Positions 1,693 through 56,613 of a DNA stretch of 64,000 nucleotides are shown here, one piece after another. Position numbers and translations under genes: made by a program. The stretch comes from Flaccisagitta enflata. Its lineage: Eukaryota. The stretch's first letter is position 1; each line of letters starts with the position of its first letter. A model generated the notes under the pieces. It ran no database searches. It saw only the letters and a list, made by a program, of their open reading frames with translations, and was not told the DNA's origin. Location of the stretch: assembly GCA_965153355.1 (NCBI GenBank), contig OZ231126.1:34472001-34536000 (forward strand), given 5' to 3'.

Positions 1693-2368
1693 GTCCCGAT
1701 GTTGTCTTACATGCGGTGAACATGGGGTAAGCCTTACTCCATTGTCCGGCGACGGATTCGACACCTATCTCAGTTTCGACGAGATTGTTGGCTGCTTCCT
1801 CCACTCGACCACCCAAAACCAATTCCGTTCCAGTCAAACCGGACGAAGCGTCAACCCGTCGATCACCATCCCACGTTCAGGGTCGGAATTCGAAATATTT
1901 ACTGTAGTCGTTTACGCGCCAAAAATCGTTGGCAAGAACAGGAAGATGCGAGAGAACGCGCGAGTTAAGTTAAGGCGGAAAACGTTCACTTTTCTCGTCG
2001 ACGAGTTCCCGACTTTCAATGACAACCATCAGTTAGCCCGGAAGTGGCAATGGCGTCTGTCTCCAGTGTTGCGGGCTCGCGAAGTCAAAGCGAGGTTGTC
2101 TTTGGGGATTTCAGCAAAGGAACAAGTTCTTTTGTCGTCACCTCCTCGAAGTCCACGCGTCGTAGTCGTCATCAACCCCTACGGAGGAACAAGAAAAGCC
2201 AAGCGATTGTTTTACAACCAAGCAGCGCCTGTATTTCGTCAGGCAGGCATCGAGTTTGTCGTCGAAATTACCAAAAGTCAAGGATTTGCGCGGAAAATGG
2301 CAGAGGAAATGGATGTTGGCTCGGTCGACGCGATCATCGCCTGCTCGGGAGACGGAATCATTCACGAG
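1693..2368 (+). CDS. SPHK: Sphingosine kinase-family exon: N-terminal region (..DEIVGC..) plus start of the DAGK catalytic domain
   Basis: ctaatcag|G acceptor and GAG|gttgaa donor. Encodes VVINPYGGTRKA, FRQAGIEF and IIACSGDGIIHE, the NPxGG and SGDG motifs of SphK. Confidence 0.9.
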
Positions 2369-2968
2369 GTTGAAACAGAAGATTGTTTGAGGGAAACGTA
2401 GTACCGACTGTCGAATGAATTTCGCAGAATTACAGCCTTATCAGTCCTCGCCCCTTTTGATACTCCACCAGACTTTATGTTGCGGACTCGTGACTAAGAA
2501 AGACTTTGTCCATCCGTCTGTCCGTCATGCTTGAGTAGAAGAATATGCGTCCGTCCGTCACAAAGTCGTTTTTCTGGTTTTTTTTTCCTCTTTGGTTTTC
2601 CTCTGCTGCCAATCCGTCCGCGACTAATGCTGCGGTGTATACAGCGCTTTCTGACACCTTGTTTCTCTTTTGTTCTGCAACTTATTTTTTGTAAGATTAA
2701 GAAGACCACAGATTCGGACGACTGTTCCAATGATTTTTTAAGACCGAATGAAGTCCGATAGACTGACACTGACACTGACACTGAAATATGAAAAAATGGA
2801 AATGTAATCTTCGAACCCGCTTGTCAAAGAAATGCAATACGAATGAAATGTGACCCACCCATGAACGGACACAACCTAAACAGAGATGTAACGACGTATT
2901 TTTACAATAATTGATATGCTCTAATATGTTTCCATAATATCTGTTGTCATATATACATGCCCAGTAAG

Positions 2969-7307: not shown

Positions 7308-10300
7308 ATGAATTACCCACCTTTTACCGGCGATTTCGACATCGGCGAGTTGGGTGACGTGGATCCTGACGCTGAAGACTCATTTCGTTTCAACGACTTC
7401 GTTTTACGATGGCGGCAAGGAATGCCGCCCAACTATGAAAAATTACTCTACGTTGAACTCGTAGACGGGCAATCGAGACTCATTGGACGTTACATCAAAG
7501 CACATAAGGTAAATATATGGTAGCGTGCTTTGTTCTTTCATTACTTCACGCATGAGTACACTTCGGCGTTTACACTAGCGAGTCGTAAATTTGCTATCCA
7601 TTTTTTTATTTACATCAGAAAATATGGCTCGAAGACGTACAATGTTTCGTGGTAAGCGATGGGACGACGGGCGGTTTTTCGAGCAAAGCGACCGAGACGC
7701 CACAAAGTCTTCGTAAGAAACTGGAGAATTTGGGTGAGTCTGGTGATTGCGTCGGGTTGGTTTAGAATGAATTGACAAAATAACTTGCCTTACACTTTTT
7801 TTTTTTATAAGAACGTCATTTTTTGAGCAAGCCTTCAATGTTCTTAAATTTTCAGCAGTTTCAAGGCTTGAACGTTCTTAAATTGTTCTTAATTCAAACG
7901 CATTTTTTAGCCTTCAATTAAGAACGTTCTTAATTAGTTTCAAGTTGGTCATTAAGGAGAAAATGAAGGAAAATGTCAATGAAACAATAAAGAAGTAGAT
8001 TTAAACATTTTAAATGAATTAAGATCATTGAAAGTAGAAAAACATATGCTATATAAAGTGAGACATGATTTGCTGAACAGAAAAGATATGGAGTCTGTCC
8101 ATTTACAAAGAACAATTGATTAAAAAAAAAACAGAAAAAAAAATGTTCTTAGATTTTTAAGATTTCAAGCCTAATGTTCTTAATTTTTTCAAGAAATGAA
8201 GCCTTCCAATGTTCTTAGCATGTTCGTAAATTTTTGACGATTTGAAGCCTAACGTTCTTATAAACTTGGTTCTTATAAAAAAAAATAAGTGTATTTTTTG
8301 AACGCAGTAATGATTGAGCGCATGAATGAAACCGTGGGGGTTTGAGACGGAGTAGGAACGAAGACTTTAAGTTTAACACTCAGCTCTGCCCGCTTTTAAA
8401 GTTAGCGTCACGGACAGACATGAGTTGTTTGACTCTTGCCTCGTTATAGGTTACGTATTATGCAGTTAAAGTAGGTCATACCCAATGTTTTTTTAATATG
8501 CTTACAGGTGTCTCGAATCGTCAAGTGATTTATCACTCAAAGGATGGGCACGTCACAACTGTCCCGCCGTGGGAACGCAACATATCTAGCCTGGGTAAGT
8601 ATTGTCGCTTTACGTTAACAACGTTAGAGGCTATAACCTATAAAATTGTCGTGCGTAGTCTTTCACAACTTAACGGCAATTGAACGTTTTCCTTCATGGT
8701 TTGTGGTTCGCGTATTAACTGTAGGTCGGGCGTATTAACTTAAGTGTTTGTTCGTGCCTACTAGCTTAACGTATATCAACATAACCGTTATCAACTTAAT
8801 TGTAATTAACTTTTAATTATTAATTATTATTTATTAATGATTAATAATCGATTATTAATTATTAATTTTTCTCTTAGTAATTAGTAATTATTAATCATTA
8901 TTCATTATTGATTATTATTAATTATTAATTATCAAGTATTAATTATTAATTATTAATTGTATTTTTTTTTGCGTATTAACATAACTGTAATTAATTTAAC
9001 ATCGTGTGTATTAACTTAACTGTATGTTCGTGCCGAATACTTTAACGTTCGCCGTATTAACTCAAGTGTTTGTACATGCGTATCCACTTAACTGCGGTTA
9101 CGCTAATAGGCACTACGTTAACTTAACGTCGTGCATATTAATTTCCACGTTATTAGCTTAACCGTAATTAATATTAATTATTAACTATTAACTTTTATTA
9201 ATTAGAGCGTTATAAACTTAAGTGTAATGAAACTTAACGTCGTGCGTCTCAACTTTGGGCACCCAAATTATAACCAATGTAACTTTGTACTTACAGAGGA
9301 AATCATCCTCGAAAGTGTTGGTCGACGCCTTCATCCATCGACAGTAATTTCGACGTCGTCCACGGCATCCACGTTATCGGCATCGCATCCCATCGCTTCC
9401 CCGTCGTACACGCCGGCAACGCAACCCGTCGATTCCTTGCCCGTAATTTCGACGTCGTCTACGATCCCTCCGTCATCGGCAACGCATCCCGACGTTTCCC
9501 TGTCGACGCCCTCCACGATCCCTCCGTCATCGGCAACGCATCCCGACGTTTCCCTGTCGACGCCCTCCACGATCCCTCCGTCATCGGCAACGCATCCCGA
9601 CGTTTCCCTGTCGACGCCCTCCACGATCCCTCCGTCATCGGCAACGCATCCCGACGTTTCCCTGTCGACGCCCTCCACGATCCCTCCGTCATCGGCAACG
9701 CATCCCGACGTTTCCCTGTCGACGCCCTCCACGATCCCTCCGTCATCGGCAACGCATCCCGACGTTTCCCTGTCGACGCCCTCCACGATCCCTCCATCGG
9801 CAGTGTCAACATCGGCAACGCAAGCCATCGTTTCCGGGCCGGTAATGTCGACGTCCGTATCACCACCTGTTACCTTGGCGGTGTCCTCCCAGTCGTTTTC
9901 AGCATCTGCTACGCCGCAGTCTGTTTCCAAAATTTTAAGCCCATCTGGACCTTTCGCGATGACACCGTCGCCAACGCCAAGTATGCTGGGGTTATCGCCA
10001 CGAACGGAGCCATTGGAGCCGCCGGCAATGTTGCCGGAGTTTTTGTCTTTCTCAGCCGGGGAGTTGAAGCGACCGGCGGCGCGAAGATTGGACAACAAAA
10101 CCAATCGTTCGTCAACCTCGACAAGAAGCGTCGTCATGTCGCCGCCGTTATCGGCGGATCGAATTTCAGCATCGTCCCCATCGTCGTTGAATTGCCATAT
10201 AGGTAAATATATGTGCGTGTGTAAGTAATTGCAATTAACATCAATTCAAGAAGGTCCAAGTCTTTTCATTGATTATAACTTTACGTTTTTAACGCCTGCT

Positions 10301-12554: not shown

Positions 12555-13610
12555 CGTTGGAAATTCCGCGTTTTTTTATTATATACGACATATAATGTAT
12601 AAAAACCTTTTGATATTATAGAAAAACTTGTAAGATTACAAGTTGTTAGTATTGTTCGGGATTTCCACTGTAATAATATTGTTAGGTATCATTTTACATC
12701 CTCGAAAAGTTTGTCAAGTCCATTCGTCCCTTTTTTATACGTTTCTGTATCTGGAATTTTAAAATTTAAACAATTGACGCTTTTGTTTATCGAGAGATGA
12801 ACTCTGCAGTGTTATAGTGGGATAGTGTGTTAGATTATGGTCTTTTTAATGGACTGTTGGATCAAACTCCGGGGTGTACTCCGTCAGTTTATTTGTTGCA
12901 AGAAGACGGGAGAGTTTTGCTCACTTTTGAGTAAAATTTTAGGGGCTTCTTTGCGGTATCGAATTTCATAGCATAGTTCAGTCATGTCAGTTGAAACAAG
13001 GCATCTCCAGTACAAAGATCAGCGGCTCTGTTCACATTTGGCAGGCCTGACATTCTGTAATGGCAAAAGCGGCAAGATTTGCCACTTCGCCACGACAAAG
13101 TCAGGCCAGCGAGTTGATTTTGTCCAAAGTTATCGCCGATCATGTAGATTACGCGCGCTTGATATCGGCGTCCGTTGAACTCAAATCCGTGAGAAATCAA
13201 ATCCGTAAACATTTGGGCAACTTTTTTGGGTTACTTGTACCAATCCCAGTTCAGTTATGTCAGCTGAAAGGATCAAACAGAAACTAACCAGCAAGTGAAA
13301 AACAGTCACGATAACTTTTACTTTCTTGCCTTAATTTTTTTGTCATACACTCCCGGATTAATTGGTGTGTTATGGAAATTTTCCAGGCGTTGGGCATTAT
13401 CTGATGTAGAGAGCCAAACTTTAAGCATGGCTTCAAGATTGTAAAAGTAAACTGGTTTTGTTTGGCCAAGTAAATGATGGGAGTAAATAGCAAGGGAAAA
13501 ACAGTCACGATAACTTTTTGTGTCTTGCCTTAATTTTTTCGTGCGGCCGTAACTTGACTTCATGAGCTTAATTGTTTGCTTTTGTTGGACTGAATGTCCC
13601 CCCTGTCATA
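12555..13610 (-). pseudogene. Inverted, internally deleted copy of the adjacent transposase gene
   Basis: Minus-strand ORF 13318-13563 matches the transposase at 72 of 74 aa (MKSSYGRT...PGVYD). ORF 12982-13212 matches MFTDLISHG...GKSCRFCHY. More diverged pieces match about 15520, 15780-15880, 15960 and 16200. Confidence 0.9.
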
Positions 13611-14362: not shown

Positions 14363-16420
14363 ATGGAAGAAGTGTTGAAAATTGTGGAAGATTGCATTTC
14401 AAAATTGCAAAATTATTACCATGTGACAGAGGTCTCCATCTCCTATGTGATTACGGTGATCCATGGGTTAGTAACATTTCTAGGTGTTCCAGCTTCAGTC
14501 CAACAAAAGCAAACAATTAAGCTCATGAAGTCAAGTTACGGCCGCACAAAAAAATTAAGGGAAGACACTAAAAGTTATCGTGACTGTTTTTCCCTTGCTA
14601 TTCACTCCCATCATTTACTTGGCCAAACAAAACCAGTTTACTTTTACAATCTTGAAGCCATGCTTAAAGTTTGGCTCTCTACATCAGATAATGCCCAACG
14701 CCTGGAAAATTTCCATAACACACCAATTAATCCGGGAGTGTATGACAGCCCCAAAAATGCTGAAATTTATCAACAGCTATCTATCACATCGCCGGACCCC
14801 GTGATTCTTTTGGCAATTTTCTGCGACGAGGTCACCCCTTTCGGCAGTTTATATGCGAAAAGTTCTGCATACAAACTTTTCAATTTTTACGTCATAGTCA
14901 TACTTCCTGGACCTAAGCAAAGGAAGTTAGAACAAGTCTTTCCTATCTGTTTGATCCTTTCAGCTGACATAACTGAACTGGGATTGGAGCAAGTAACAGA
15001 AAAAATTGCCCAAATGTTTACGGATTTGATTTCTCACGGATTTGAGTTCAACGGACGCCGATATCAAGCGCGCGTTATATACGTGGTCGGCGATAACCTC
15101 GGACAAAATCAACTCGCAGGCCTAACTTTGTCGTGGCGAAGTGGCAAATCTTGCCGCTTTTGCCATTACAGAATGTCAGGCCTGCAAAATGTGAACAGAG
15201 CCGCTGATCTTTGTACTGGAGAGCAGCGTACAAGTTTGGAGTATGAAGAAACGATTGAGAAGGCTCTGAACAACGAACAACTAAGTTACGGGTTCACCAA
15301 TATGCCGTCCTTCCATACTATCCCTTATCTCCCAAAGAATACCTCCAGTTTCACACTCGATGTGGATCATGATTTCTACATCGGGTGTGCTTTACACTGG
15401 ATGGGATTCATAATAAACAAAATCGTCTTTGAGCTAAATTGGCTCTCTCCTTCCACAATGATAGCGGCCTGGAAACGTATAAAATTTGTAAAGGAAGACA
15501 GTCGCAACAGGCCATATATGAAATTCGATACCGCAAAGAAAACCGTGAAGTTGTGCTCAAAAGTGAGCCAAATAAAGTGTCTCATACACTGTTTTTCAAT
15601 AGTACTTTACCCGTTCATAAGAGACACCAAACATCTTGTTTGGAAATTTTATTTGATTTTACTGCACCTATCCCGTCTGCTTAGAACAAATCGGCACACA
15701 AACAATAGCCTGGTAAAATTGGAAGAGTACATAAATTCAGCATTAAATATACGCATTGCTCTCACTAAAAAGCCGGATGGTCAGTTTGATCCAACAGTCC
15801 GTTCGAAGGACCATAATCTTACTCACTATCCCACCACAATACGAAGAAATGGCCCTCTAAGTCTGCAGAGTTCATCTCTTGGTGAGCAATTTCACCAAAT
15901 ATGTAAACAATGCTATGGAAATTCCAGATGCAGTAAACATTTATTGACAACGCTACAGCGACGAATGGACTCGAAAATCCTTTCGCGGACAAAAGAGGAT
16001 TCGCTAGAATGCAAAAGTGTCGCCTTGAAAAAATTAACTAATTTAGACCAAATGTCCACATGTTTTTATGAGCTGTGTAATGATCCGTCGTCTTGGGTAA
16101 AAAGTTTCACCAGAAACGGTTATCATTTTGGTCTTGGCACGTTAGTTGGTATTCCTCGCCGTGATAACGAGTTTGAGCCCCGTTTTTTCCTCATTGCGGG
16201 AATAATAAAACAAGGCCCTAATTTCCAATTAGCCCAAAGAAACGTCGAGATCATCGGAATGGACCACTTAGGTCTATTCCAATTGAAGCCTAGCGCAAAC
16301 CGACCAAGAAGAAGAAATTGGTCGGAATCGCTCGTTCCAATTCCGTATTACCAGCTACATAACGGCCAAAATAATATCTCAGTCTTCTCTCTTAAGGATT
16401 TTAATTTACATCGAAAATAA
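14363..16420 (+). CDS. EnSpm/CACTA-like (CMC) DDE transposase, intronless, 685-aa ORF
   Basis: Motif series typical of animal EnSpm transposases: FCDEVTPFGS (D at 14825), GDNLGQNQLAG (D at 15092), CRFC, DVDHD (DxxH), KDHNLTHYP..IRRNGPL and GEQFHQ (E at 15884). Confidence 0.88.
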   Translation: MEEVLKIVEDCISKLQNYYHVTEVSISYVITVIHGLVTFLGVPASVQQKQTIKLMKSSYGRTKKLREDTKSYRDCFSLAIHSHHLLGQTKPVYFYNLEAMLKVWLSTSDNAQRLENFHNTPINPGVYDSPKNAEIYQQLSITSPDPVILLAIFCDEVTPFGSLYAKSSAYKLFNFYVIVILPGPKQRKLEQVFPICLILSADITELGLEQVTEKIAQMFTDLISHGFEFNGRRYQARVIYVVGDNLGQNQLAGLTLSWRSGKSCRFCHYRMSGLQNVNRAADLCTGEQRTSLEYEETIEKALNNEQLSYGFTNMPSFHTIPYLPKNTSSFTLDVDHDFYIGCALHWMGFIINKIVFELNWLSPSTMIAAWKRIKFVKEDSRNRPYMKFDTAKKTVKLCSKVSQIKCLIHCFSIVLYPFIRDTKHLVWKFYLILLHLSRLLRTNRHTNNSLVKLEEYINSALNIRIALTKKPDGQFDPTVRSKDHNLTHYPTTIRRNGPLSLQSSSLGEQFHQICKQCYGNSRCSKHLLTTLQRRMDSKILSRTKEDSLECKSVALKKLTNLDQMSTCFYELCNDPSSWVKSFTRNGYHFGLGTLVGIPRRDNEFEPRFFLIAGIIKQGPNFQLAQRNVEIIGMDHLGLFQLKPSANRPRRRNWSESLVPIPYYQLHNGQNNISVFSLKDFNLHRK

Positions 16421-26187: not shown

Positions 26188-26860
26188 CTAAACGTCAACC
26201 AAATTTCATGAAATTGAAAAAAACAAGCTCAGCAGATCATTATTTAACAAAAACAGGGCATAATTTTTTTTCAGAGTTCCCCAAAAAAATTTTTAGCCCA
26301 AAAAAACGTTTCTAATTATATAATAGATTGGAAAGAAGTTGATATTCTTCACCTACACCTTTTTTAAGACTAGTATGGTAAAAACTCCACACGGTTTTTT
26401 TTTTTTGGTTTACAAACGTTTTTAGCCAAGCAGATAATAAACTGTGAATTAACAAGTGGAGCCCAATGCTTAGATCTTTCGATTTACATTTCCATTTTTT
26501 TTTTGGATTTTTCGAATAAATTGGCCACTTGGCCTTATCATTTCCAGTTATATGTATGTTTCAAGTTGCATGATATGATGAACGATGTTTTAGCAGTCAC
26601 AATTATTATTTCTATGCCATTGTCGGTGAACGTTAAAATGTTAAAATGTTTTTTGGTTCCCATTCACCGGTTTAACGGTGGGAACCAGTATTAGATAGAA
26701 AATATAACTGAAATTGTGATCTGTGATATTGAGAAACGTTTACGTGTTTTTGATTTTTTAGTAAATATATCCCATACAAATGTGATAGACAAAGAAATGT
26801 GATAAAAGTTCTCATGAGCCATTGAAAGTTTATTTTTCTGTTAGTATCCAGATTTCCATC

Positions 26861-27562
26861 ATGGCATACTATGCCAAAAGTGTAATCGTTGAGATGACGC
26901 CATTGACGGGAGAACCTGAATTCTCCATCCTCAGCTTTAGTCAGCTGGAGGAGTTTGCTGAACAATGGCGATGCTGCATTTGCCTCCGAGACCCCCACGA
27001 CGCGCATATATGCCCAAAATGCACCACAATTTTTGGCAAAGGCTGCCTGTACACAGCGTACAACGTCTTCGACGCCACCTCATGTCCACATTGCCGGTAG
27101 CTGCTGAAATGTTGCTTGTTTACTGTGTGTAATTATTGTGAAATAACAAATAGAATGTTGGAGTAAATGTGATATGCAATTTCCTTCCACAGCAGGGACG
27201 TTGCGCTTGACACTTTCGTCCGCACGCCGCAAATCGACATCATTGCGAAGATGATAAGACGTGCGCTTCCATTGCCGAAAAAGTGCAGCAAACATCCAAG
27301 CAAATATGTGCAATATGTTTGCCACACATGCAGCAAGTGTGTGTGCGGGATATGCTGCAGGTCAGTTGTCATTGCTCATTGTAACATGCCACGACAGTAT
27401 AAGTATAATTTACGGCTCTTTTATATAACTTTGATATTAATATTGATATTGGCGTCTTCTTTTCTTAACAGTGACGATCACTCAACCGATGACCACAACG
27501 TCAACAAACTTCCGGCGTACAAATTCGCCCAGCACGAAAATTCACAAATAATCCAGGAGTAA
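26861..27562 (+). CDS. Cargo gene D1: mini-TRIM (TRIM37-like RING + B-box 2), 3 exons (26861-27096, 27196-27360, 27472-27562), about 163 aa
   Basis: RING: FAEQWRCCICLRDPHDAHICPKCTTIFGKGC...SCPHCR. B-box: CSKH..YVCHTCSKCVCGICCSDDHSTDDH. Both introns are phase 2. Confidence 0.85.
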
Positions 27563-27732
27563 AGATCGACATCGAAAATTTTATAAAAAGCGAAACTGTG
27601 ATGTGCGTGTTATAACGTCCTATGTATACATGTTTCAAGTTTTCATATCGCATTGGACAATGTGTTATTCATCCAGATTGAACATCTCGACTTTCGACTT
27701 TCATAAAAATTACAAACAGTACTTTAATAGAC

Positions 27733-28452
27733 ATGACTACATTTCCCGAATTCATCGTCAGCACTTTCGATGACGTTGAAAAATTAAAGGCGGAATTCCG
27801 CTGCCTAATATGTTTGGGCGACCCAACGGATCCGCACGTTTGCCCACACTGCTCTGGCATTTTTGGCCGTAATTGTTTGCAGGTCGCTTTTAACCAATTC
27901 AACGCCACTTCATGTCCACATTGCAGGTAACGGCCTCAATATCTCCTTTTTGTTTATTGGTCTGAGGAACGAGTTTGTGAGTTATTCTCTTTAAGACACA
28001 AATTGTCTTTTTACTAAATATGATCGGCAATTTTCATCCACAGGACGGCCGTTGGGCTCGATGCTTACGTGCAGTCGCCGTTCGTTGAAGGTATTTTGGC
28101 GAGTTTTCGAAGCGCGCTGCCATTACCACAAACATGCGCCATCCATCCGGAGAAATACGTTCAAGTATTTTGCGCAGCTTGCGACAAGAGCGCGTGCGAT
28201 CAATGCTGGACGTGAGTTGAATTTTACTGTTTTATACTTATTCATTGTTTTGTGAAGATATCATGTCCGATTCTGTTTATTGAATTTGATGTACCTGTTA
28301 TATTGCTCAATAATGGTATTCGTGTCTTTTATTTTGTTCCCAGTGATCAGCACTTGGACCACCAGGTTACTGCAGTTCCGGCGCACACCTTCGCTCAATA
28401 CGCCAATTCCATTGTGAATTACAACATCGCCATGCACGGTCGCAGTGACTAA
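27733..28452 (+). CDS. Cargo gene D2: paralogous mini-TRIM (TRIM37-like RING + B-box 2), 3 exons (27733-27926, 28044-28211, 28344-28452), 156 aa
   Basis: RING: LKAEFRCLICLGDPTDPHVCPHCSGIFGRNC...SCPHCR. B-box: CAIHPEKYVQVFCAACDKSACDQCWTDQHLDH. Same intron positions as D1. Confidence 0.85.
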
Positions 28453-28934
28453 ACGCAGCGTCATTAGCCGATTGCGGAGCGACATTTCTGCGACATTTCT
28501 GCACCGTTGCTTCAACACATGTTGTTATTTTTAGTAAATGTACGTCAGCTTTAGTTGTTAATTAGCGGTTGTTATAGTGACGAAGTCCAGTATTTATTTG
28601 TTTTCATTCATTCATCAGCTTTTGCGCTTTACAATTGATTGTTATTGTTGACATTGATATATAATTGGAGGCGAGTTTCCGTTCTGTTGCTTGATTCATG
28701 AAAAATAAAAATCGAAAAAGCATACTGTAAGAAAAATTCTTTAGCTTTGGGACACATCTGATCTGATTGTTACATCCCTCTTGTTTACATCCCAGAAACA
28801 GCTCGGTATTTTGTTTGAAATATGTAACAATCATGGAAAATGTTAGACAGTACATACCCCTTAAACAATACTCGCGTACTCATTAAAGGCTGTAAATGTC
28901 TCAGTCGTTATATGTGTCCCAACGCAAAGAAACA

Positions 28935-28979
28935 GGTTGCGTCGCTGTTTGAGACTTTTTCTCAAACAGCGACGCAACC
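28935..28979. repeat. Perfect 20-bp-stem hairpin just inside the right subterminal region
   Basis: GGTTGCGTCGCTGTTTGAGA-CTTTT-TCTCAAACAGCGACGCAACC. Confidence 0.9.
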
Positions 28980-29938
28980 CGTATTTTTTTTAAAAAATTT
29001 TCAAAAATTATATTTTTGATATAACTTTTTTGTTATATTTTCAAATATAACTTTTTTTAATTATAATTGTCATATAACCCCGTGGATGTTTCTGGCCTTG
29101 GTTATATCGATTATATCAAAAAGGTACCCTCACATGCATATCTTCAGCTAGCATGCAAAAAAAAAAAAAATCTTTGAGGGTGGCAAAAAAAAAGTGATTT
29201 CTATGTAAAATTGCATCAGGAATCCATTTTTGATGTTTTTAGGGCCCTACAAGGGGGCCCCTAGAAACGCACCAAAAAAAACAGCCAAAAATAGCCTATT
29301 CTGGCTATTTTTGTTGAAAATTTTTTGCTTAATGAGACCCCAACCCCCAAATTTTTTTGGTGGTAATACTTCTTGATGTAAGAGACTGAAAAAAAATATG
29401 ATCATCATGGTAAGTGATGGTTGGGGTACCTAAAAAGGTCCAAAAAGGGCCCGTAAAACATAAAAAAAAAACCAATTTTTGAGTTTTCTTACATGAAAAC
29501 ACTATTTCAAGGTCCCTGAATCCAATTTTTTTTTTGAAAATGGTTAGTCCTGCATCTTGGGAGATCCCAGAAAAAATTTCAGCAGATATTTCCAAAAAAT
29601 GGCCGAGTTAATACGGTTCAAAATGACCTGGTAAATATAAAAAAACACAATTTTGTAACTTCAAGGCTGTAGTACTGAAAAATCATACTAAAAATACCTG
29701 GAAAATAGACATATTAAAAAGAAAATGCATGGAGAATCCATTACTGGTGGTTTGGGGGCTCTATAAGGGGGCCCTTGGAAACACCCCCCCAAAAAAAGCT
29801 AAAAATGACCTATTTTGGCTTTTTTTTGTAAAAATTTCTTGTTCAAAGAGACCCAATCCTTCCAAATTTTTTTGGGCTATACTTCTTGATGTAAGAGGCT
29901 GATGGAAAGAGAATCATGATGGTAGGTGATGGTTGGGG

Positions 29939-32622
29939 CTGGGCCGGAACAACCGAGTGCGGGGCCCTAGGCACTTGAGGTAGCGGGGCCCCCCACTAGA
30001 TGCAACATGTTGCAAGGTTGAAGCAAATATATGATTGAGGCAAAATATTTGTATTGCTTTTTAGTCGCGTGCTACGCGACTCTACACCCCGCTATGTCGG
30101 TCTGTCGGTCCGTTGGTCGGTTGGTCCCCTTTTCACTTTTTTGGCGTTTTTAAGCTTTTTGAGAATACCTTTTCTGCCCAGAGGCCCTAATGACCTTCTC
30201 CAGCACTGCTCCTGCCCACCCACACGCGACTAAGGTAGCCGTGTATCCGGCCTTGTTGTAATTAAGATAAAGCCATAGCTGTTTGATCAAGAATTCTAAC
30301 ACCCAATGCAAAAACTCTACAACCGGCTCCGTCGGTCGGTTGGTCTGTCGGTTGGTCCGTCGGTCGGTCCGTCAGTCGGTCGGTTACACTTAGCTTTTTT
30401 GCGTCGTTTTTGGTCATTTTGGGTCGTCTGAAGTTTTTTTAAGTCATTTTTGAGTTGTTTTTTTGGTCATTTTTGGTTGCTTTTAGTCATTTTTGGTCAT
30501 TTTTGATCATTTACGTCACTCAGTCGGTCTGTTTGTCCGTCCGTCAGTTGGTAACACTTTGCTTTTTTGCGTTGTTTTTGGTCATTTTTGGTCGTCTGGG
30601 GTTATTTTGAGTCATTTTTTTTTTTTGTTTTTGATCATCTTTGGTTGCTTTTTGTTATTTTTGGTGACTTTTGATCATTTACGTCACTTTGTTCATTTAA
30701 GTCATTTGTGTCGTTTTTGGGCATTTAAAGTGGTTTTAAGTCATTTTAGGTCACTTTGGGACATTTCGGGTCATTTTTGTTCATTTAACATGGTTTTTTG
30801 GTATGTTTTGGTCATTTATGTTTTTTAGTTTTTTGGTTTTTTGTTTTTTTGTTTTTTTGTTTTTTGGTTTTTGGTTGATTTTTGATCATTTTTTTTGATC
30901 ATATACTACCTAGGAAAAAAGTATATCTACACCTGGGATACAATATGATTTAGTGACCTAATATTCATTTAATCATTATACAAAAAGTATTAATATATAA
31001 AATAACTTGTCTTTTAACTAAAAATTCTTATCAAAGTTTTGGGAAGCAATATCTAAAGCCATTCTAACTTATTATAAAGGATATGGTGTTAACACTCATA
31101 GGCAAATTTATAATATAGGAAGAAGTTTATAATTATATCTGCCATTTCCAAACGTACAAAAATACAGAAACCAGAATGAGTTCATCTTCTAGATTTCTTC
31201 ATATAGATAATTTTGCTTTTTTGAAAAATGTACTAGCTGCTCTAGAAGTGGAGATATGTCGATTTAAAGCTGTCTATAATTTCTGCATTCTGCTGTCTTT
31301 TATATTTTCTTGATTTTGAAAATGAACGTCTTTTACATTTTTGCTTGTAATTTCTAAACGGTTTAAGATACACCGACCAGATTGAACTCATTTTGAAGAT
31401 TTTTTGATGACGTTTAATTTGTTTTTTTAAAAATCTATCTAGCATTTCTAGAAGCGGAGATATCCTTAGTAGAAGGTGTAGATATACTTTTTTCCTAGAT
31501 AGTAACATGGTTTTTTGCTTTGTTTTGGTCATTTGTGTTTTTCATTTTTTTTTTTTTGAGTTTTTGTTTTTTTGTTTGTTGGTTTTTTTGTTTTTTTTGT
31601 TTTTTTTGTTTTTTGGTTTTTGTTTTATTGGTTTTTGTTTTTTTTTTGTTTTTTGGTCTGCTGGTTTAAGTCTGCTGGTTTAAGTCTGCTGGTTAAAGTC
31701 TGCTGGTTAAAGTCTGCTGGTTAAAGTCTGCTGGTTAAAGTCTGCTGGTTAAAGTCTGCTGGTTAAAGTCTGCTGGTTAAAGTCTGCTGGTTTAAGTCTG
31801 CTGGTTTAAGTCTGCTGGTTTAAGCCTGCGGGTTTAAGTCTGCTGGTTTAAGCCTGCTGGTTTAAGTCTGCTGGTTTAAGTCTGCTGGTTTAAGTCTGCT
31901 GGTTTAAGTCTGCTGGTTTAAGTCTGCTGGTTTAAGTCTACTGGTTTAAGTCTGCTTGTTTAAGTCTGCTGGTCATTTTATTCATTTCGTATATTTCTCC
32001 CTATTCAGTCATGTTGTTTAAAAAGATACAATAAGGAGTCAGGTCAATTCAGTTGTTTATGTCTCGCACGCAACTTATAGGTGTTGGCCTTGTTTTGAGA
32101 GAAAACAAAGTAGCAATGAGTGCAGATTTCTCTAGAGAAAAAACAAGGCCGGATACACGGCTACCCCAGTCGCGTGTGGGTGGGCAGGGGCTGTAATTGA
32201 GGTCAATGCATCATTTGGGCAGGAGCAGTGAAGCCAGAGACTGCAAAAACCCAAAAAAAGTAAAGTGTGACGGACGGACCGACGGACGGACGGACGGACC
32301 GACGGACGGACCGACGGACCAACAAAGCGGGGTGTAGAGTCGCGTAGCACGCGACTAAAAATCTCATTCCTTTCCTCTGTTTCTTTTTTTTTCCTTTCTT
32401 CTTTTCCTTTCTTCTTTTTCTTTTTCTTTTTCTTTTTTTTTTTTCTTCCCCTTTTTCTTCCCTCTTTTCTTCCCCTTTTTCTTCCTCTTTCCCTTCTCCT
32501 TTTTTTCTTTTCCCCTTCTTTCTTTCTCCCTCTTTTTCTCCTTTCCCCCTGAGGCGCGGGGCCCCTCTTAGGCGCGGGGCCCTAGGCAGTGCCTATTGTG
32601 CCTATAGGTTGTTCCGGCCCAG
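29939..32622. mobile_element. hAT-type non-autonomous element nested in the fold-back element
   Basis: TIRs CTGGGCCGGAACAACC / GGTTGTTCCGGCCCAG. Perfect 8-bp TSD GGTTGGGG. Subterminal GCGGGGCCC repeats. Confidence 0.85.
31656..31972. repeat. 14-bp minisatellite (GTCTGCTGGTTWAA)n
   Basis: Seen directly. Confidence 0.95.
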
Positions 32623-32994: not shown

Positions 32995-35900
32995 GAGAGA
33001 GAGAGAAGGGGGAGGTAGTGGGGAGTAGGAGACTGGTGATACGTAAAAAGAAAATTTGACTCGAAACAAAAGTCTTGGCAATAAATCTGTTTCTGTCGTT
33101 TATTGTTGGTTGATGAAAAGACGACTCGCCTAAAACGTTGAAAACGGGAAGTTGATAGTGAAGTGCACCCATCTGTATAACTTGGTCTTTCCATCCGTCA
33201 GTCCATCAATTATTTGTTCCCTTACTCTGTTTGTCCATCCAGTCGATCATTTGGTTGCTCTTTATCACTGCTTCCTTGTCATATAATTTTTTTTTTTAAA
33301 TAACTTGTCCTGCAATGAGTGACCCGGGGTCACAATATCATTGCAGATGAGTGGGCAGAGGAGTCAACTCCCATCTACATCCAAATTTCCCCCACACCCA
33401 ATCCAAAAAAAAGGATGTAAAATGGTTGTTTTTCCACTTATAGACTCAAACATTCCCGGCAGATCAATAGACAGATGGATGGACTGACAGATTGACATAG
33501 CAACAGACAGACAAACAAAAAGACAAAGCTCCTTTTTTATCATTGCCTCAGCCCATCCGCGCACGACTTGGGTAGCTATGTATCCGGCCGTTTTTTAGTC
33601 GCGTGCTTTGGTGCACTTAAAGGTTCTAAGCATGTGGTCCAGGCTGAGTCATACCGGTGCTGTAAGGTTGATCATCTTTCTGTTTACTGTTCACATGCAG
33701 GAACAACTATTTTTTAAATAACACTGGTTTAAATGAAAATGAAAATTGAATTTACAGAGGTGGGGGGGGCAATTTTGTGGATTTCTATTTTTTTTCATGA
33801 AATACTCCAATCAAGGAACCAAAAATTAACAGTGAGCTTTTTGCATTAAATGCAAAGTTCTATTTCAATTTTTTGAAGAAATCCAAGCATTTTTAAAGCA
33901 CAATGAATAAGAAATTTGTATCATTGTTTTATCACCCGTTTTTGGGCCTTTCAGGTACCCCAAACATCACCTACCATCATGATTCTTTTTTTCAGTCTCT
34001 TTCATCAAGAAGTATTCTTACCTTAAATTTTAGAAGGTTGGAGTCTCATTGATAAATTTCTTTTTACCAAACATAGCAAAAACAGGCCATTTATGGAAAG
34101 TCTTTTTGGTGCGTTTCTAGGGGCCCCCTTATAGGACCCTTAAACCATCTGAAATAGATTCACCATGCATTTTGAAATACATTTAACTTTTTTCCAGTTA
34201 CTCTTTGTAGAATTTTTCATGCAAACAGCCTCTTTACTTTTTTCATTAACCAGGTCATTTTAAACAGTACTAGCATTTTCAAAAAATATCTGCTTAAATT
34301 TTTTCTGGGACCTTTTAAGATACATGAGAAACCATTTAGAAAAAACAAGGCCAACACCTATAAGTCGCGTGCAAGACATAGATAACTTATGATGACTCAA
34401 ATTGACTTAAAATGACTTAAGATGACTGAAAATAACTTAAAAAGACATAAAATGATGATAAATGACTTATACGACTAAATTGACATAAGCAACTTGATAT
34501 AATGTAAAATGACTTAAAATGACTTACAATGACTTACGATAACTTAGAATGACTTAGAATGACTAAAAATGGCCTAAAATGACTAAGAATAACTAAAAGT
34601 AATAAAAAGAATAATGTTTGACCAACGGACTGATGGACAGACAGAGGGACGGACAAAGCGGGTTGTAGAGTCGCGTGCACGCGACAAAAATTGGATTCCA
34701 TGACCTTGAAATAGTGTTTACATGTGAGAAAACTAAAAAATTTGCTTATTTTGGGGCAAATTTTGTTTTTTTGAGTGTAATGTTACCATGAATCTGTTCA
34801 AAAGCTTTTTACATAAAATGAGAATCTACATTTCAAATTTTTTTGGAATCCAAGCATTTTTGGACGCGCAGTGAATAAAAAAATGATATCTTTATGTTTT
34901 ACGGGCCCCTTTTGGGCCTTTTTAGGTACCCCAACCATCATCTACCATCATGATTCTCTTTCCATCAGTCTCTTACATCAAGAAGTATAGCCCAAACAAA
35001 TTTGGAAGGATTGGGTCTCTTTAAACAAGACAATTTCTCAAAAAATAGCCAAAATAGGCCATTTTTAGCTTTTTTTTGGGGTGTGTTTCCAGGGGCCCCC
35101 TTGTAGAGCCCAAGAACCACCAGTAATGAATTCCCCATGCATTTTCTTTTTAATTTGTCTATTTTCCAGGTACTTTTAGTATAATTTTTCAGTTCTACAG
35201 CCTTGAAGTTACTAAATTGTGTTTTTTTTCATTTACCAGGTCATTTTGAACCGTAATAACTCGGCCATTTTTTGGAAATATCTGCTGAAATTTTTTCTGG
35301 GATCTCTCAAGATGCATGACTAACCATTTTCAAAAAAAAAATTGGATTCAGGGAACTTGAAATAGTGTTTTCATGTAAGAAAACTCAAAAATTGGGGGTT
35401 TTTTGGCCGAATTTTGTTTTTTGGAGCATAATTTCAACATGAAGCTGTTCAATAGTGGCCACAAAACTTTGCAGGAAGATTGTTGCATAAAATGAGAAGT
35501 TCCATTTCAAATTTTGTAGGAATCCAAGCATTTTTAGACGCGCAATGAATAAAAAAGTGATATTTCTATGTTTTACGGGCCCTTTTTGGGCCTTTTTAGG
35601 TACCCCAACCATCACTTACCATCATGATCATTTTTTTTTTCAGTCTCTTACATCAAGAACTATTACCACCAAAAAAATTTGGGGGTTGGGGTCTCATAAA
35701 GCAAAAAATTTTTAACAAAAATAGCCAAAATAGGCCATTTTTGGCTGTTTTTTTTGGTGCGTTTCTAGGGGCCCCCTCGAAGGGCCCTAAAAACATCAAA
35801 AATGGAATCCTGATGTAATTTTACATAGAAATCACTTTTTTTTTGCCACCCTCAACAATTTTTTTTTTCTTACAAGAAATAACGCAGCTAGCTGAAGATA

Positions 35901-39733: not shown

Positions 39734-40183
39734 CAGGCCTTTTTTTAGAGTGAGCCCGCGAGCCTGTGGCTCTCTATTTTGCTGTCAGGCTCACTTTTTG
39801 CTGGCCCTGAGCCCGGCGGGCTCTCACTGATTTGATGAGGCATAACCAATCCAAGTTAATCTGATCATTTTTGTAAAATTTCATGAAACGACTCTTAACT
39901 GTTTGCGAGTTAAAGTTTCATTCAAAAGTAAGAATCAAAAAAGGCCGGATACACAGCCACCAGTTGCGGGCGGGTGGGCAGAGGTGTTTTCCCACTTTTC
40001 AACTTGAGCATGACTGACGGACGGACGGACGGACGGATGGACGGACCAACGGACGGACAAAGCCTCTTATAGAGTTGCGTGTCCGCAACTAAAATACAAA
40101 TGCATTTTCTCTCCTGTCTCTATTCTAAAATTTGAACGGCAAATAGATAAATGAGCTTAGCATCTTCACTTAGAAAAGGCCTG
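39734..40183. mobile_element. hAT-type MITE (CAGGCCTTT family)
   Basis: TIRs CAGGCCTTTT / AAAAGGCCTG. TSD CATCTGAG/CATCTGAA. Left end is homologous to 61023 onward. Confidence 0.75.
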
Positions 40184-40410: not shown

Positions 40411-40914
40411 TGATCAAGCTGAAAACGTACAAAGTCCGCTTTTCGCTAAAACCGGTAATAACTGCAATGAACCACAATTTCTCCAACAACGAGATGCCGT
40501 CCAAGATAAATCCAGAAGTTAGCAGCCGACTGAAAAGGAACCTTTTGTCCATCGTCAATCGCATGGAAGGCGGACGAAAGTGGCCACAGGAGACGTTTCC
40601 GCCGCGAAGATCTGGAGGCTGCGGCGACGACGTGGCAGGCAATGAATTTAATGACAATAACGACCGAAACTCCGTTTCCTACTCGGCACATTCAAATCGA
40701 CACTCACCGCCCCCACTCGGTTCACCGCCTCCTTCCGACTGGCTCACCGTCGAGGCGGAAGTTGTCAGCTGGAACGCGGTGAATACGTCACACATCGCCT
40801 CGGATTTTGTCATTTGTTCACCGGCGAGCATGAGCGACGGCGTGATCGATATTGTCGTCCTTAGGGCGGGCATCACTAGAGTTGACTTGATCAAAGCCAC
40901 AGCTGCCAAAATCT
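40411..40914 (+). CDS. SPHK: Sphingosine kinase-family exon (VIKLKTYK...SDWLTVEAE...SHIASDFVICSPASMSDGVIDIVVLRAGITRVDLI)
   Basis: ttcctcag| acceptor and T|gtaagt donor, 504 nt, phase 1-1. Matches the SphK C-terminal lobe. The final DGE-containing exon was not found in the window. Confidence 0.85.
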
Positions 40915-41055
40915 GTAAGTATGGATTTCGTTCGGCGTGATCCGTGATTATTACCCAAAATGGTTAATTGTGTGACACGCAGGGCCGGCGAGAGGGGGGG
41001 AGGGCGTCAACTCCACCGAAGGAGGGCCCCTGAGGTAAGAAAAAGAAAAAGAAAA

Positions 41056-42936: not shown

Positions 42937-45482
42937 ACTTTTTTGGCGTTTTAGAGCTTTTTGAGTGTACTGCTCCTGCCCATATGCTCTAGTGACCTTC
43001 TCCAACACTGCTCCTGCCCACCCACACGCGACTTGGGTAGCCACGTATCCGGCCTTGTTTTAAACAAGGACATTAGACCTAAGTCGTATGCGTCGGCACT
43101 TTCAAAAAAATTCAGGCAGACAGACAGACAAACAATCTTTTTTTCAAAAAGACATCTGAAATGGCTGTTTACTCCACAAAGTTCCTTCTTTACCATTCAG
43201 AAACACGATTTAAAAAGCTTTTAAAACAGTTTTGTTACTGACCAACAGATGGACCAACGGACCAACCAAAAAGTGGCTTATAGAGTCACGTAGCACGCAA
43301 CTACAAATGTTTAAGAAATCAATCCAAGTTCAGTATTCTAAGTGGTTTAGAAGCTAGAGCTCTGAATTGTTAAAAATGCATTTTTATAAAACAAGGCCGG
43401 ATACACAGCTACCCAATTCGCGTGGTGGGCAGGGGCCATATTTGAGGTCCCCAGGGCATTTGGGCAAGAGCAATACAGTCAAAGAATAACAAGGCCGGAT
43501 ACACGGCTAATACCATTTGCGGACGGGTGGGCAGGGGCAGAAATGCGCGTTTTCACAATTTCCAACTCAATCACCATGACGGACGGACCGACGGACAGAC
43601 AGACCGACGGACGGACCAACGGACAGACCGACGGACGGACGAACAAAGCCTCTTATAGAGTTGTGTGTCCGCAACTAAAAAACATAAAAAAGTAAAAAGT
43701 GACCAACAGACCAACCGACGGACAAAGCCGGGTGTAGAGTCGCGAAGCACGCGACTAAAAACTGAAATAAGTATTGTTTCCACTCAGATAAGGGGGCTGT
43801 TAAATTAGTATTCTTAATGTGTATACTGAATTAAAAAAAAAACAAATAACTTTTCTACCCTTTGCCTATGTAAACTGGCTAAGTCCTAGTAACATATTAC
43901 TACTTAAATAAGCTAATATCTCATAAACCAGACTTCAGAATTAATTCAAATTTTGCAGGTTTTTTTTACTACCCCCTTCTTGTATACCAAATTAGAAAAA
44001 AAATCACATACTTTTACTTCCCTCTACCTATGTAAACCACTTGAGTCCCAACTAGATATTACTACAAAATTAATAGGCAAAGGGTAGTAAAAGTTTATGA
44101 ATCGTTTTGAAAATTGGTACATTAGCTCCTATTGACCTAAAAAAACACCAGCAAAGTTTCATAAAATTCTAAAGTCTGGTTTAAAAGATATGAGAAGGTT
44201 TTAAACATCAGACAGACAGACAAACAAACAAACAAACAGACCACCACAAACAGGCTACTTCATAGTCACCAAAACTGCTCGTTGGGCACAAAAAATAAGA
44301 TTTTGCGCAGCTATCTTGATCAGAACCTTCTTCAGCATTGATTTGAAGTTAACAAAGAAAATATAGGGAAAATCTGTAGGACGGCTTGCATGTGATGGCA
44401 TAATTTGGAGGCTCACTGAAGGTTAAAAGTGATCAATATTTTTCATCAAAACTAACAAGACTATTCTATAGTAGTACTTTAACTATATCATTTGGAAAAA
44501 TCTCAATGCAAAATAATTTGAAAATTAAAAAACTTTCAGTCTACAGGTTTTTTCAAATTTTTCAGTTTTTTTTGGTCGCAGATTCACGACTTTAGAACTT
44601 GCTGTGTCGGTTGGTTGGTCCGTATGTCTGTCTGTCCAATGGACATTGGTCCATCGGTCAAATGTCTAACGATCCATCGGTCCAATGTCCATTGGTCCGC
44701 TGGTAACCAAAACAAATTGGGGCGTTTTTTTGTTTTCTGCTCCTGCCCATCTGCGACTGGGGGGAGTGTATACACTGTATACAGCCTTGTTTGTTGGGAA
44801 CATGCAACTCTATAAGAGTATTTTTCCATCCCTCCATCCGTTGGTCTGTCATGCTCGAGTTGAAATGCGAAAAAACGCGAAAAAAAGTGTTTTTGCGGGG
44901 TTCAATTGTACTCATCATCTTCCTCTACCCCTCATTCTTTTTTTGCCGCAGATACACGACTTTAAAACTTGCAATTTTGGTCGGTTAGTCGGTCAGTCAT
45001 TCTGTCGATGACTAAGTTGTTTTTCAAGGTTTTCCGCTCCTGTCCAGTGCCCACCAGTCCGCAACTGGGGGGGAAGTGTATAAGGCTTATCTTTTATCCT
45101 TTTTTCACTTTTTTTTCTTTTCTTTTTCTTTCTTCATTTTCTCTCCTACCTCTTCTTCTTATCATTCTCCTTCACCTCTTTTTCATCTTCATCTTCTTCT
45201 TTGCAACTACGTTTCTTTCTTTCTTCTTCTTCTTCTTCCCCATCTTCTTCTTCTTTTCATTCACCTCCTTTTCATCTTCTTCGCAACTATGTTTTTTCCT
45301 TTTTCTTCTTCTTCTTCTTCTTCTTCTTCTTCTTCTTCTTCTTCTTCTTCTTCTTCTTCTTCTTCTTCTTCTTCTTCTTCTTCTTCTTCTTTCTCTTCTT
45401 CTTTCCTTTTCCTCTTCCTTTCTGTCTGACTTACTCTCTGTCTCTGTCCGTGTTCCTGGTCATTGCTTGGAAGAAACTGATA

Positions 45483-56304: not shown

Positions 56305-56613
56305 AACAAGGCCGGATACACGGCCATCAGTTGCGGACGGGTGGGCAGGGGCGGATATGCGCGTTTTCCCACTTTTCGACTCGATGGTTACGGACGGACG
56401 GACGGACGGACAAAGCCTCTTATAGAGTTGCGTGTCCGCAACTAAAAAGAAAACAAGGCCGGATACACGGCCTTACCAGTTGCGGACGGGTGGGCAGGGG
56501 AGGAAATATACCATTGCACACTTTTCAACTTGTGCACACCGATGGACCAAGGGACCGATGGACGGACCGACGGATGGACAAAGGCTCTTATAGAGTTGCG
56601 TGTCCGCAACTAA
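56305..56613 (-). mobile_element. Two adjacent HINE/DINE-1-like repeats (family 1; many copies across the window)
   Basis: Read on the minus strand: T-run, AGTTGCGGAC sub-TIR, (CCGT)n microsatellite, GTCCGCAACT inverted copy, GGCCG-TGTAT-CCGGCC stem-loop, TTGTT. Relatives at about 610-748, 30060-30258, 32140-32360, 39938-40094, 43490-43680, 50613-50810 and 62582-62780. Confidence 0.65.

Follow-up and report, generated by a model that had tools for sequence, protein, structure and literature searches.

Tandem Genes for Truncated TRIM37-like RING and B-box Proteins With a Shared Glycine at a RING Zinc-Ligand Position

Structure of the D1/D2 Locus

The window (the whole 64-kb stretch of DNA that was analyzed) is eukaryotic nuclear DNA, with a low density of open reading frames (ORFs), abundant micro- and minisatellites and dispersed repeats; scans of the window for tRNAs and Rfam families return no matches. 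It harbors two tandem paralogues on the + strand, D1 (26861-27562, 164 aa when spliced) and D2 (27733-28452, 156 aa when spliced), each consisting of three exons and free of internal stops (Table 1). The coordinates are exactly those of a first-pass annotation, whose description of two three-exon genes with identical intron positions stands: all four introns run from GT to AG and contain pyrimidine tracts, and the junctions, all in phase 2, fall in the same alignment columns. These introns are predicted from sequence and comparison alone. Exon 2 has the same length (168 nt) in both genes, and intron 1 of D2, like that of D1, begins with an in-frame stop codon.

The two proteins are identical at 70 of 147 positions (48%, E 4e-52) and are encoded at adjoining loci, in agreement with the tandem duplication proposed at first pass. 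When the two loci are aligned as DNA, most of the similarity falls within the exons and around the splice sites. The stop codon of D1 is separated by 170 nt from the start codon that D2 has of its own, and the N-termini of the two proteins are homologous. No third copy is detected by tblastn within the 64-kb window.

Table 1. Coordinates of the predicted features of D1 and D2 and of the unspliced RNA contigs.
Feature	Position	Strand	Description
Unspliced RNA-library contig span (X12, X16)	26395-27619	unreadable from contigs	Depth 24-27
D1 exon 1	26861-27096	+	Start codon, 14-residue N-terminal extension, helix, RING with 7/8 ligands
D1 Gly59 codon GGC	27035-27037	+	RING zinc-ligand position 5
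D1 intron 1	27097-27192	+	96 nt, GT..AG, phase 2; if retained, first codon is an in-frame stop
D1 exon 2	27193-27360	+	Linker, B-box 2 ligands 1-6; zf-B_box E 0.003, below cut-off
D1 intron 2	27361-27471	+	111 nt, GT..AG, phase 2; reads open in frame
D1 exon 3	27472-27562	+	Final two B-box His ligands, 21-residue tail, stop codon
D2 exon 1	27733-27926	+	Start codon, helix, RING with 7/8 ligands; zf-RING_2 E 7.4e-4, below cut-off; 3lrq E 7.8e-6
D2 Gly45 codon GGC	27865-27867	+	RING zinc-ligand position 5
D2 intron 1	27927-28043	+	117 nt, GT..AG, phase 2
D2 exon 2	28044-28211	+	Linker, B-box 2 ligands 1-6; zf-B_box E 1.9e-4, below cut-off
D2 intron 2	28212-28343	+	132 nt, GT..AG, phase 2
D2 exon 3	28344-28452	+	Final two B-box His ligands, 29-residue tail, stop codon

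The RING, the B-box and the Missing C-terminal Domains

Each gene encodes a RING with seven of eight ligands, a B-box 2 with all eight and a short tail, an arrangement already recognized in the first-pass annotation together with the loss of a cysteine from the third CxxC pair of the RING. A canonical cross-brace RING has eight zinc ligands distributed over two zinc sites; in the exon-1 alignment of D1 and D2, seven cysteine ligands are invariant and the fifth is glycine, a reading that the 24-row alignment described below confirms. The glycine codon is GGC in both copies, one base from a cysteine codon, and in the alignment with the human TRIM37 RING structure (3lrq) this residue faces a cysteine. 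No substitute ligand for this position is conserved across the glycine-bearing group (D1, D2 and five further rows).

Pfam, structure and database searches were run exon by exon on the unjoined sequence of the window. The Pfam matches remain below threshold because the RING is atypical and the B-box is split by intron 2: zf-RING_2 matches D2 at E 7.4e-4, without reaching the cut-off, and D1 has no RING match, its exon 1 being assigned in part from a weak Pfam RING signal in close homologues. The B-box of D1 and D2 acquires its full set of eight ligands only across the junction of exon 2 with exon 3. Scored with a profile of the B-boxes of eight relatives, each with an above-cut-off Pfam zf-B_box match, D2 obtains 46.5 bits and D1 29.6 bits, and the best of 400 shuffles reaches 8.0 bits. 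In the spliced products the B-box zinc finger directly follows the RING, as in TRIM/RBCC proteins.

Beyond the last B-box ligand there are 21 residues in D1 and 29 in D2; these tails are too short for a TRIM coiled coil, and the long coiled coil that follows the B-box in TRIM/RBCC proteins is lacking. The C-terminal MATH/TRAF domain that characterizes TRIM37 (class VIII, subfamily A) is likewise absent from both proteins. The search for missing exons covered the whole 64-kb window by tblastn with ten relatives, including the MATH-bearing P0036 and the MATH-like P0025, and found no coiled-coil or MATH exon: significant matches (E<=0.01) are confined to 26897-27415 and 27691-28212, and two others have E values of 0.10 and 0.79. 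The truncation proposed at first pass is supported both in the genes themselves and in the rest of the window.

The basic "linchpin" position after the last RING cysteine is occupied by arginine in D1, D2 and two marine metagenome relatives (P0044, P0045). In two others (P0001, P0043) it reads as glycine in the unspliced ORF, where the codon is split by intron 1. E3 competence may thus have been lost already, or may differ between lineages, if the glycine at the linchpin of P0001 and P0043 is taken at face value. For the D2 RING (exon 1), AlphaFold2 with a 25-row alignment gives a mean pLDDT of 61 and a pTM of 0.34, values too low to interpret, and the predicted complex of D1 exon 1 with D2 exon 1 scores 0.02 (mark 0.34; controls and the exon-2 helix absent), which speaks neither for nor against binding.

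Relationship to TRIM37

TRIM37 belongs to TRIM class VIII, or subfamily A of Marin 2012, and TRIM37-like genes are the oldest branch of TRIM ligases. When D2 exon 1 is compared with all solved structures, the human TRIM37 RING (3lrq) is the best match (E 7.8e-6, the next being 0.0088), which supports the TRIM37 motif given in the first-pass annotation. A profile of the two RING exons retrieves 36 proteins at E<=1e-3 among 1.84 billion. One of them, P0036, is named TRIM37 of the dragonfly Ladona fulva by its sources and comprises 752 aa with a RING, a B-box and MATH_2 (E 1.3e-18). Ten of the 36 matches were scanned for domains: six contain a B-box and three are multi-RING proteins without one. 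The closest long relative of D1 and D2, P0040 (558 aa, in the cluster of P0005), aligns end to end with P0036 (E 3e-21), in the RING, the B-box, the coiled coil and the whole of the MATH region, which supports a TRIM37-like ancestry. In the RING, P0040 is 39-42% identical to D1 and D2, and P0025 (447 aa) 31-32%. There are also short RING and B-box relatives, P0031 (183 aa) and P0042 (192 aa), which end soon after the B-box.

Among known proteins, the RING and B-box of D1 and D2 are thus closest to those of TRIM37. On the RING tree the two genes lie apart from canonical TRIM37 (P0036, P0051), in a separate group near P0002; because of this separation they are, as judged from the tree, derived paralogues of the TRIM37-like branch and not TRIM37 orthologues. 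We hold the identity and architecture of D1 and D2 as TRIM37-like RING and B-box proteins with high confidence. Several other searches found no relatives: a word-based homologue search with D2 exon 1 against longer proteins gives no match, none of the 74 RING pattern matches in JGI metagenomes or the 40 in IMG/VR is upheld by tblastn, and megablast against a phage collection finds nothing.

Age of the Cysteine-to-Glycine Change

The RING alignment comprises 24 rows, omitting P0014 (without the last cysteine pair) and P0037 (a near-duplicate of P0001, which also carries glycine at ligand 5). Seven rows have glycine at this position (D1, D2, P0001, P0038, P0043, P0044 and P0045) and 17 have cysteine. 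In the pairs computed, the glycine rows are 39-83% identical to D1 or D2 (P0038 is outside that matrix). Apart from D1 and D2, the glycine-bearing sequences (P0001, P0037, P0038, P0043, P0044, P0045) are marine metagenome ORFs of 79 aa that correspond to D1 exon 1, end at the intron-1 donor and keep the seven other RING ligands intact. They are 55-83% identical to D1 and represent four further diverged lineages. Two ORFs of the length of D2 exon 1 (P0002, P0039) retain the cysteine.

On the RING tree, whose roughly 70 columns limit its resolution, the glycine state requires one change (support 73/73), and a single change is found in 75% of the bootstrap trees. The loss of the ligand-5 cysteine is therefore old, and probably arose once, before the duplication that produced D1 and D2. 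Because the glycine is common to four more diverged lineages, it is older than could be seen from the two copies at first pass. Judged from these alignments, glycine is maintained at ligand 5 in several diverged lineages with all other ligands intact.

Coding Constraint and Transcription

The first-pass annotation had proposed that the two genes are kept under selection and had named a dN/dS near 1 as the contrary outcome. Between D1 and D2, dN is 0.47-0.52 and dS 0.87-1.36, the latter near saturation, and the overall dN/dS is about 0.35-0.54. By exon, NG86 ratios are 0.20 (exon 1), 0.50 (exon 2) and 0.29 (exon 3); in every exon, conservation is lowest at the third codon position. Since the ratios are below 1 and the third position follows this pattern, all three exons have evolved as coding sequence. 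Relatives give further support for the introns. The P0004 and P0015 ORFs stop exactly at the position of intron 2; both lack intron 1, reading straight through its position, and group with P0025 on the tree. The ORFs of P0002 and P0039 stop at the position of intron 1. P0046, the unspliced ORF of a close D1 relative, is well conserved in its exon-2 part, where it keeps the six B-box ligands encoded by that exon, and diverges in the flanking, intron-derived parts.

DNA of the window is present in marine metagenome runs of several studies and in runs of one organism. Contigs of three metatranscriptomes (X12, X13, X16) were compared with it over 26200-30300; Logan contigs such as these are strandless and lose minority paths. 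X12 and X16 each contain one colinear contig in which both D1 introns are retained (26497-27619 at depth 24.1 and 26395-27562 at depth 27.1, respectively), with depths of 0-5 in the flanks of the span and 0-4 over D2. A splice joint at a predicted D1 or D2 intron is not listed in any of the metatranscriptome contigs, the shorter pieces of X13 included. The unspliced form is at least prominent in the libraries that cover D1; if translated, this D1 reading stops one codon after the last RING cysteine. Poly-A RNA-seq of the likely source organism gives no read on D1 or D2 in the portion read (about 6 in 100 of the run). In both protein searches, the D1- or D2-type proteins are exon-sized ORFs only, none of spliced length. 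Among the listed differences between the window and the RNA contigs, three are coding (S7C, D47E and N146K), all of them non-synonymous; ten further differences fall outside this listing. A T10 "loose end" before 26395 in X16 was considered as a minus-strand poly-A tail and rejected, the genome having its own T run there.

Genomic Context

D1 and D2 are not enclosed by repeats in the window, whether direct or inverted. A 685-aa ORF at 14363-16420 resembles the Transposase_21, Plavaka and DUF1258 clusters in a language-model search (0.93-0.98); it has no Pfam match and ends 10.4 kb upstream of D1, with repeats and unrelated ORFs in between. The segment 12688-13594 is a decayed inverted copy of this ORF. 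Pfam searches of 18 neighboring ORFs find a DAGK_cat exon and low-complexity noise only. The cargo of a transposon or a virus would be expected between the ends of an element or beside hallmark genes, and D1 and D2 occupy neither position in the window. On the evidence of the window, both are ordinary chromosomal genes.

Alternative Explanations

The RNA evidence bears on the nature of the products. Unspliced mRNA could yield peptides that contain the RING alone (79 aa from D1, 65 aa from D2), the B-box exons being relics or rarely used. The contigs of X12 and X16, colinear with the genome across both D1 introns, the pieces of X13 without a joint and the stop codon at the head of both introns 1, at which the unspliced reading ends one residue past the last RING cysteine, are consistent with such peptides, as is the content of the protein collections (the 79- and 65-aa ORFs and the one unspliced exon-2 ORF, P0046). 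However, exon-sized ORFs are the expected output of gene callers built for prokaryotes when applied to intron-bearing DNA, and a spliced form could be missed among contigs that drop minority paths. Furthermore, the substitution pattern of exons 2 and 3 is that of coding sequence (NG86 0.50 and 0.29, third position least conserved), and neither copy has lost any of the eight B-box ligands, those of exon 2 being present in P0046 as well; we regard RING-only products as unlikely. The coding constraint also weighs against the view that D1 and D2 are functionless copies of the 5' part of a full-length TRIM37-like gene, incomplete and in decay. Both frames are intact, the splice sites are conserved and dN/dS is below 1 in each exon; seven RING and eight B-box ligands persist at 48% protein identity, and four other lineages, with 55-83% identity to D1, retain the glycine-bearing form as well. 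Such decay appears very unlikely, although the proteins are truncated and short of one zinc ligand, the three listed D1 coding differences in the population are all non-synonymous and D2 is barely present in RNA libraries, where D1, in two of them, reaches 24-27x against 0-5x in its flanks. It is barely credible that the genes are longer than modelled and continue into coiled-coil, MATH or other exons further downstream or beyond the window. Given the poor conservation of coiled coils, tblastn might miss them, and 64 kb were examined; yet the in-frame stops of the two copies lie at equivalent places, D2 begins 170 nt past the stop of D1, tblastn with P0025, P0036 and eight others finds nothing else at E<=0.01, and P0031 and P0042 also end soon after their B-box.

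The remaining alternative concerns origin, and was the one put forward in the first-pass annotation: a mobile element or virus would have captured, truncated and duplicated the N-terminus of a host TRIM37, and the product would counter host silencing or restriction as a dominant-negative decoy or retargeted adaptor. Truncation, duplication and a damaged RING would suit a decoy, and both the transposase-like ORF with its decayed inverted copy and the many ORFs on the + strand between 9 and 28.5 kb could be seen as the surroundings of an element. Nevertheless, capture is highly improbable, given that D1 and D2 lack enclosing repeats, that the sole transposase-like ORF ends 10.4 kb away beyond repeats and unrelated ORFs, that IMG/VR contains no relatives and that neighboring ORFs have no informative Pfam matches. 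The introns are of spliceosomal type, at positions common to relatives, and the glycine variant is old and conserved in several lineages. The inhibition route described for TRIM49 and TRIM51, in the part of the source concerned, requires a coiled coil (PMC11992055), which D1 and D2 do not have. A decoy would be one version of an accessory or regulatory mechanism; its element-capture and host-silencing components are without support. Of the overall interpretation given at first pass, TRIM37-like ancestry, truncation, duplication, selection and the glycine change are therefore retained and capture by an element is set aside.

Proposed Role and Comparison With Known Systems

The explanation toward which we lean is that D1 and D2 are tandem, lineage-specific derivatives of TRIM37-like genes (TRIM subfamily A) that act as free-standing RING and B-box modules with an accessory or regulatory role. 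Their ancestor would have been a TRIM37-like ligase from which the coiled coil and the MATH/TRAF substrate-binding domain were lost, each descendant presumably consisting of a RING preceded by an N-terminal helix and followed by a linker, a B-box 2 and a short tail. With glycine in the place of ligand 5, the RING has only three cysteines at its first zinc site. Because the coiled coil is absent, D1 and D2 would not form the antiparallel TRIM dimer, and because the MATH domain is absent, they would offer no TRIM37-type substrate site. They retain the B-box and a RING with a helix on either side. They would most likely act through RING-RING or B-box contacts, as small subunits with an accessory or regulatory function in a ubiquitination complex rather than as self-sufficient E3 ligases, and possibly as non-catalytic partners of a full-length TRIM37-like ligase. 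This mechanism of RING or B-box contacts, which we infer in its entirety, is offered tentatively and is in itself doubtful. A more specific version is a long shot: the members of a conserved mini-TRIM37 clade would pair RING-to-RING with full-length ligases and, as non-catalytic regulators, cap or re-tune the substrate-driven oligomerization by which these are activated, a pseudoligase mechanism that operates without a coiled coil.

D1 and D2 are a lineage-specific variant of the known TRIM37-like family. Our searches, which were not designed to exclude one, found no description of a small clade that combines coiled-coil loss with a conserved first zinc site of three cysteines. How the RING and B-box control the activation of TRIM37-like ligases is under active study, and the D1/D2 module would provide a test of whether a RING folds and functions with one ligand missing, and of whether RING-RING contacts alone allow a small paralogue to regulate a full-length ligase. 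If the genes have only a lineage-specific accessory function, they are a routine addition to a known family.

Compared with TRIM37 itself (3lrq, P0036), D1 and D2 share the RING spacing CxxC-x9-CxxC-x4-CxxC, the B-box 2 spacing C-x2-H-x8-C, the order of the domains and a similar linker. In contrast to TRIM37, they lack the coiled coil and the MATH/TRAF domain, carry glycine at ligand 5, comprise 156-164 aa (752 aa in P0036) and fall into a different group of the RING tree. The divergent TRIM37-like proteins of marine metagenomes (P0040, P0025) resemble D1 and D2 in the CL.DP motif after the first RING cysteine pair and in the type of linker, but their ligand 5 is still cysteine, and beyond the B-box they have a coiled coil and a C-terminal domain alignable with the MATH of TRIM37.

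Duplication and domain loss have precedents in the family. TRIM37-like genes occur across eukaryotes; in mosquitoes they have undergone a lineage-specific amplification, with 0-2 MATH domains, and Dictyostelium has a TRIM37-like gene without MATH (passages of PMC3503706). Like D1 and D2, these are duplicated TRIM37-like genes that have lost C-terminal domains, although neither coiled-coil loss nor the loss of a RING zinc ligand is mentioned in the same passages (PMC3503706). The nearest counterpart in domain content is engineered: a RING-B-box-2 miniTRIM37 dimerizes via its RING, according to the portion of the preprint consulted (bioRxiv 10.1101/2024.10.09.617493). This RBhcc construct (RING, B-box 2, hairpin) has nearly the domains of D1 and D2; in contrast to them, it is artificial, its coiled coil is a grafted hairpin and its RING is intact (the same portion of bioRxiv 10.1101/2024.10.09.617493). 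With respect to regulation, inactive TRIM paralogues can control active ones, as TRIM51 does with TRIM49 via their coiled coils (excerpts of PMC11992055). TRIM51 resembles D1 and D2 in that its RING is structurally compromised and that it may regulate an active paralogue. However, in these excerpts it keeps the full RBCC-SPRY architecture and pairs through the coiled coil (PMC11992055), whereas D1 and D2 have no coiled coil.

Intron structure of D1 and D2

In the tandem mini TRIM37-like RING and B-box 2 genes, D1 and D2, all four predicted introns have lengths divisible by three, and an in-frame stop lies at or adjoining the donor site in 3 of the 4, the exception being the second intron of D1. 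Because this intron contains no in-frame stop, the ORF 27251-27562 is continuous through it.

Features of the window
Feature	Position	Strand or orientation	Remarks
DAGK_cat-bearing ORF	1946-2398	+	domain E 2.6e-16
Ser-, Thr-, Pro-rich ORF	9227-10228	+	333 aa
Transposase-like ORF, intact	14363-16420	+	685 aa; language-model search
D1 introns, predicted	27097-27192, 27361-27471		96, 111 nt
D2 introns, predicted	27927-28043, 28212-28343		117, 132 nt
Dispersed repeat, ~780 nt, two copies	29158-29938, 34929-35871	opposite
SINE-like dispersed repeat, 11 copies	32265-58108		examples 40012-40098, 43598-43684, 56365-56451
ORF with weak sphingosine kinase 1 match	40467-40937	+	solved structures, E 0.066

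Repeats and RNA-library depth

Downstream of D2, the two copies of the ~780-nt repeat are 93-95% complementary and separated by 5-6 kb; RNA-library depth over the repeat stretch is elevated (20-150). At 30036-30300, contig depth added up over the three metatranscriptomes rises sharply to ~1,200-21,500, against ~0-150 over the remainder of the mapped stretch, and numerous contigs differ in their flanks at 30057/30058 and 30257. Together, the jump in depth and the unlike flanks point to a very abundant element of ~200 nt, transcribed or repeated, which is adjoined by tandem repeats (30331-30897). In the SINE-like repeat, a conserved unit of ~45 nt, which has a short hairpin and is A-rich at its end, comes after a (GACG/GACC)n tract. 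The Ser-, Thr-, Pro-rich ORF rests on seven tandem repeats of 54 nt (9395-9880) and is assigned to no family.

Kinase-like and transposase-like ORFs

The weak match of the ORF at 40467-40937 covers residues 235-298 of sphingosine kinase 1, the protein represented in 4 of 4 structure matches. If this ORF and the DAGK_cat-bearing ORF were exons of one sphingosine-kinase-like gene, D1, D2 and the transposase-like ORF would all lie within an intron of ~38 kb, on the same strand.

Inverted repeats of parts of the transposase-like ORF occur a short way upstream of it (12688-13594); at 72-98% complementarity, they form a second, decayed copy, arranged head to head with the intact one. The intact ORF has no Pfam match, and by language-model search resembles animal Transposase_21, Plavaka and DUF1258-type transposase clusters (scores 0.93-0.98).
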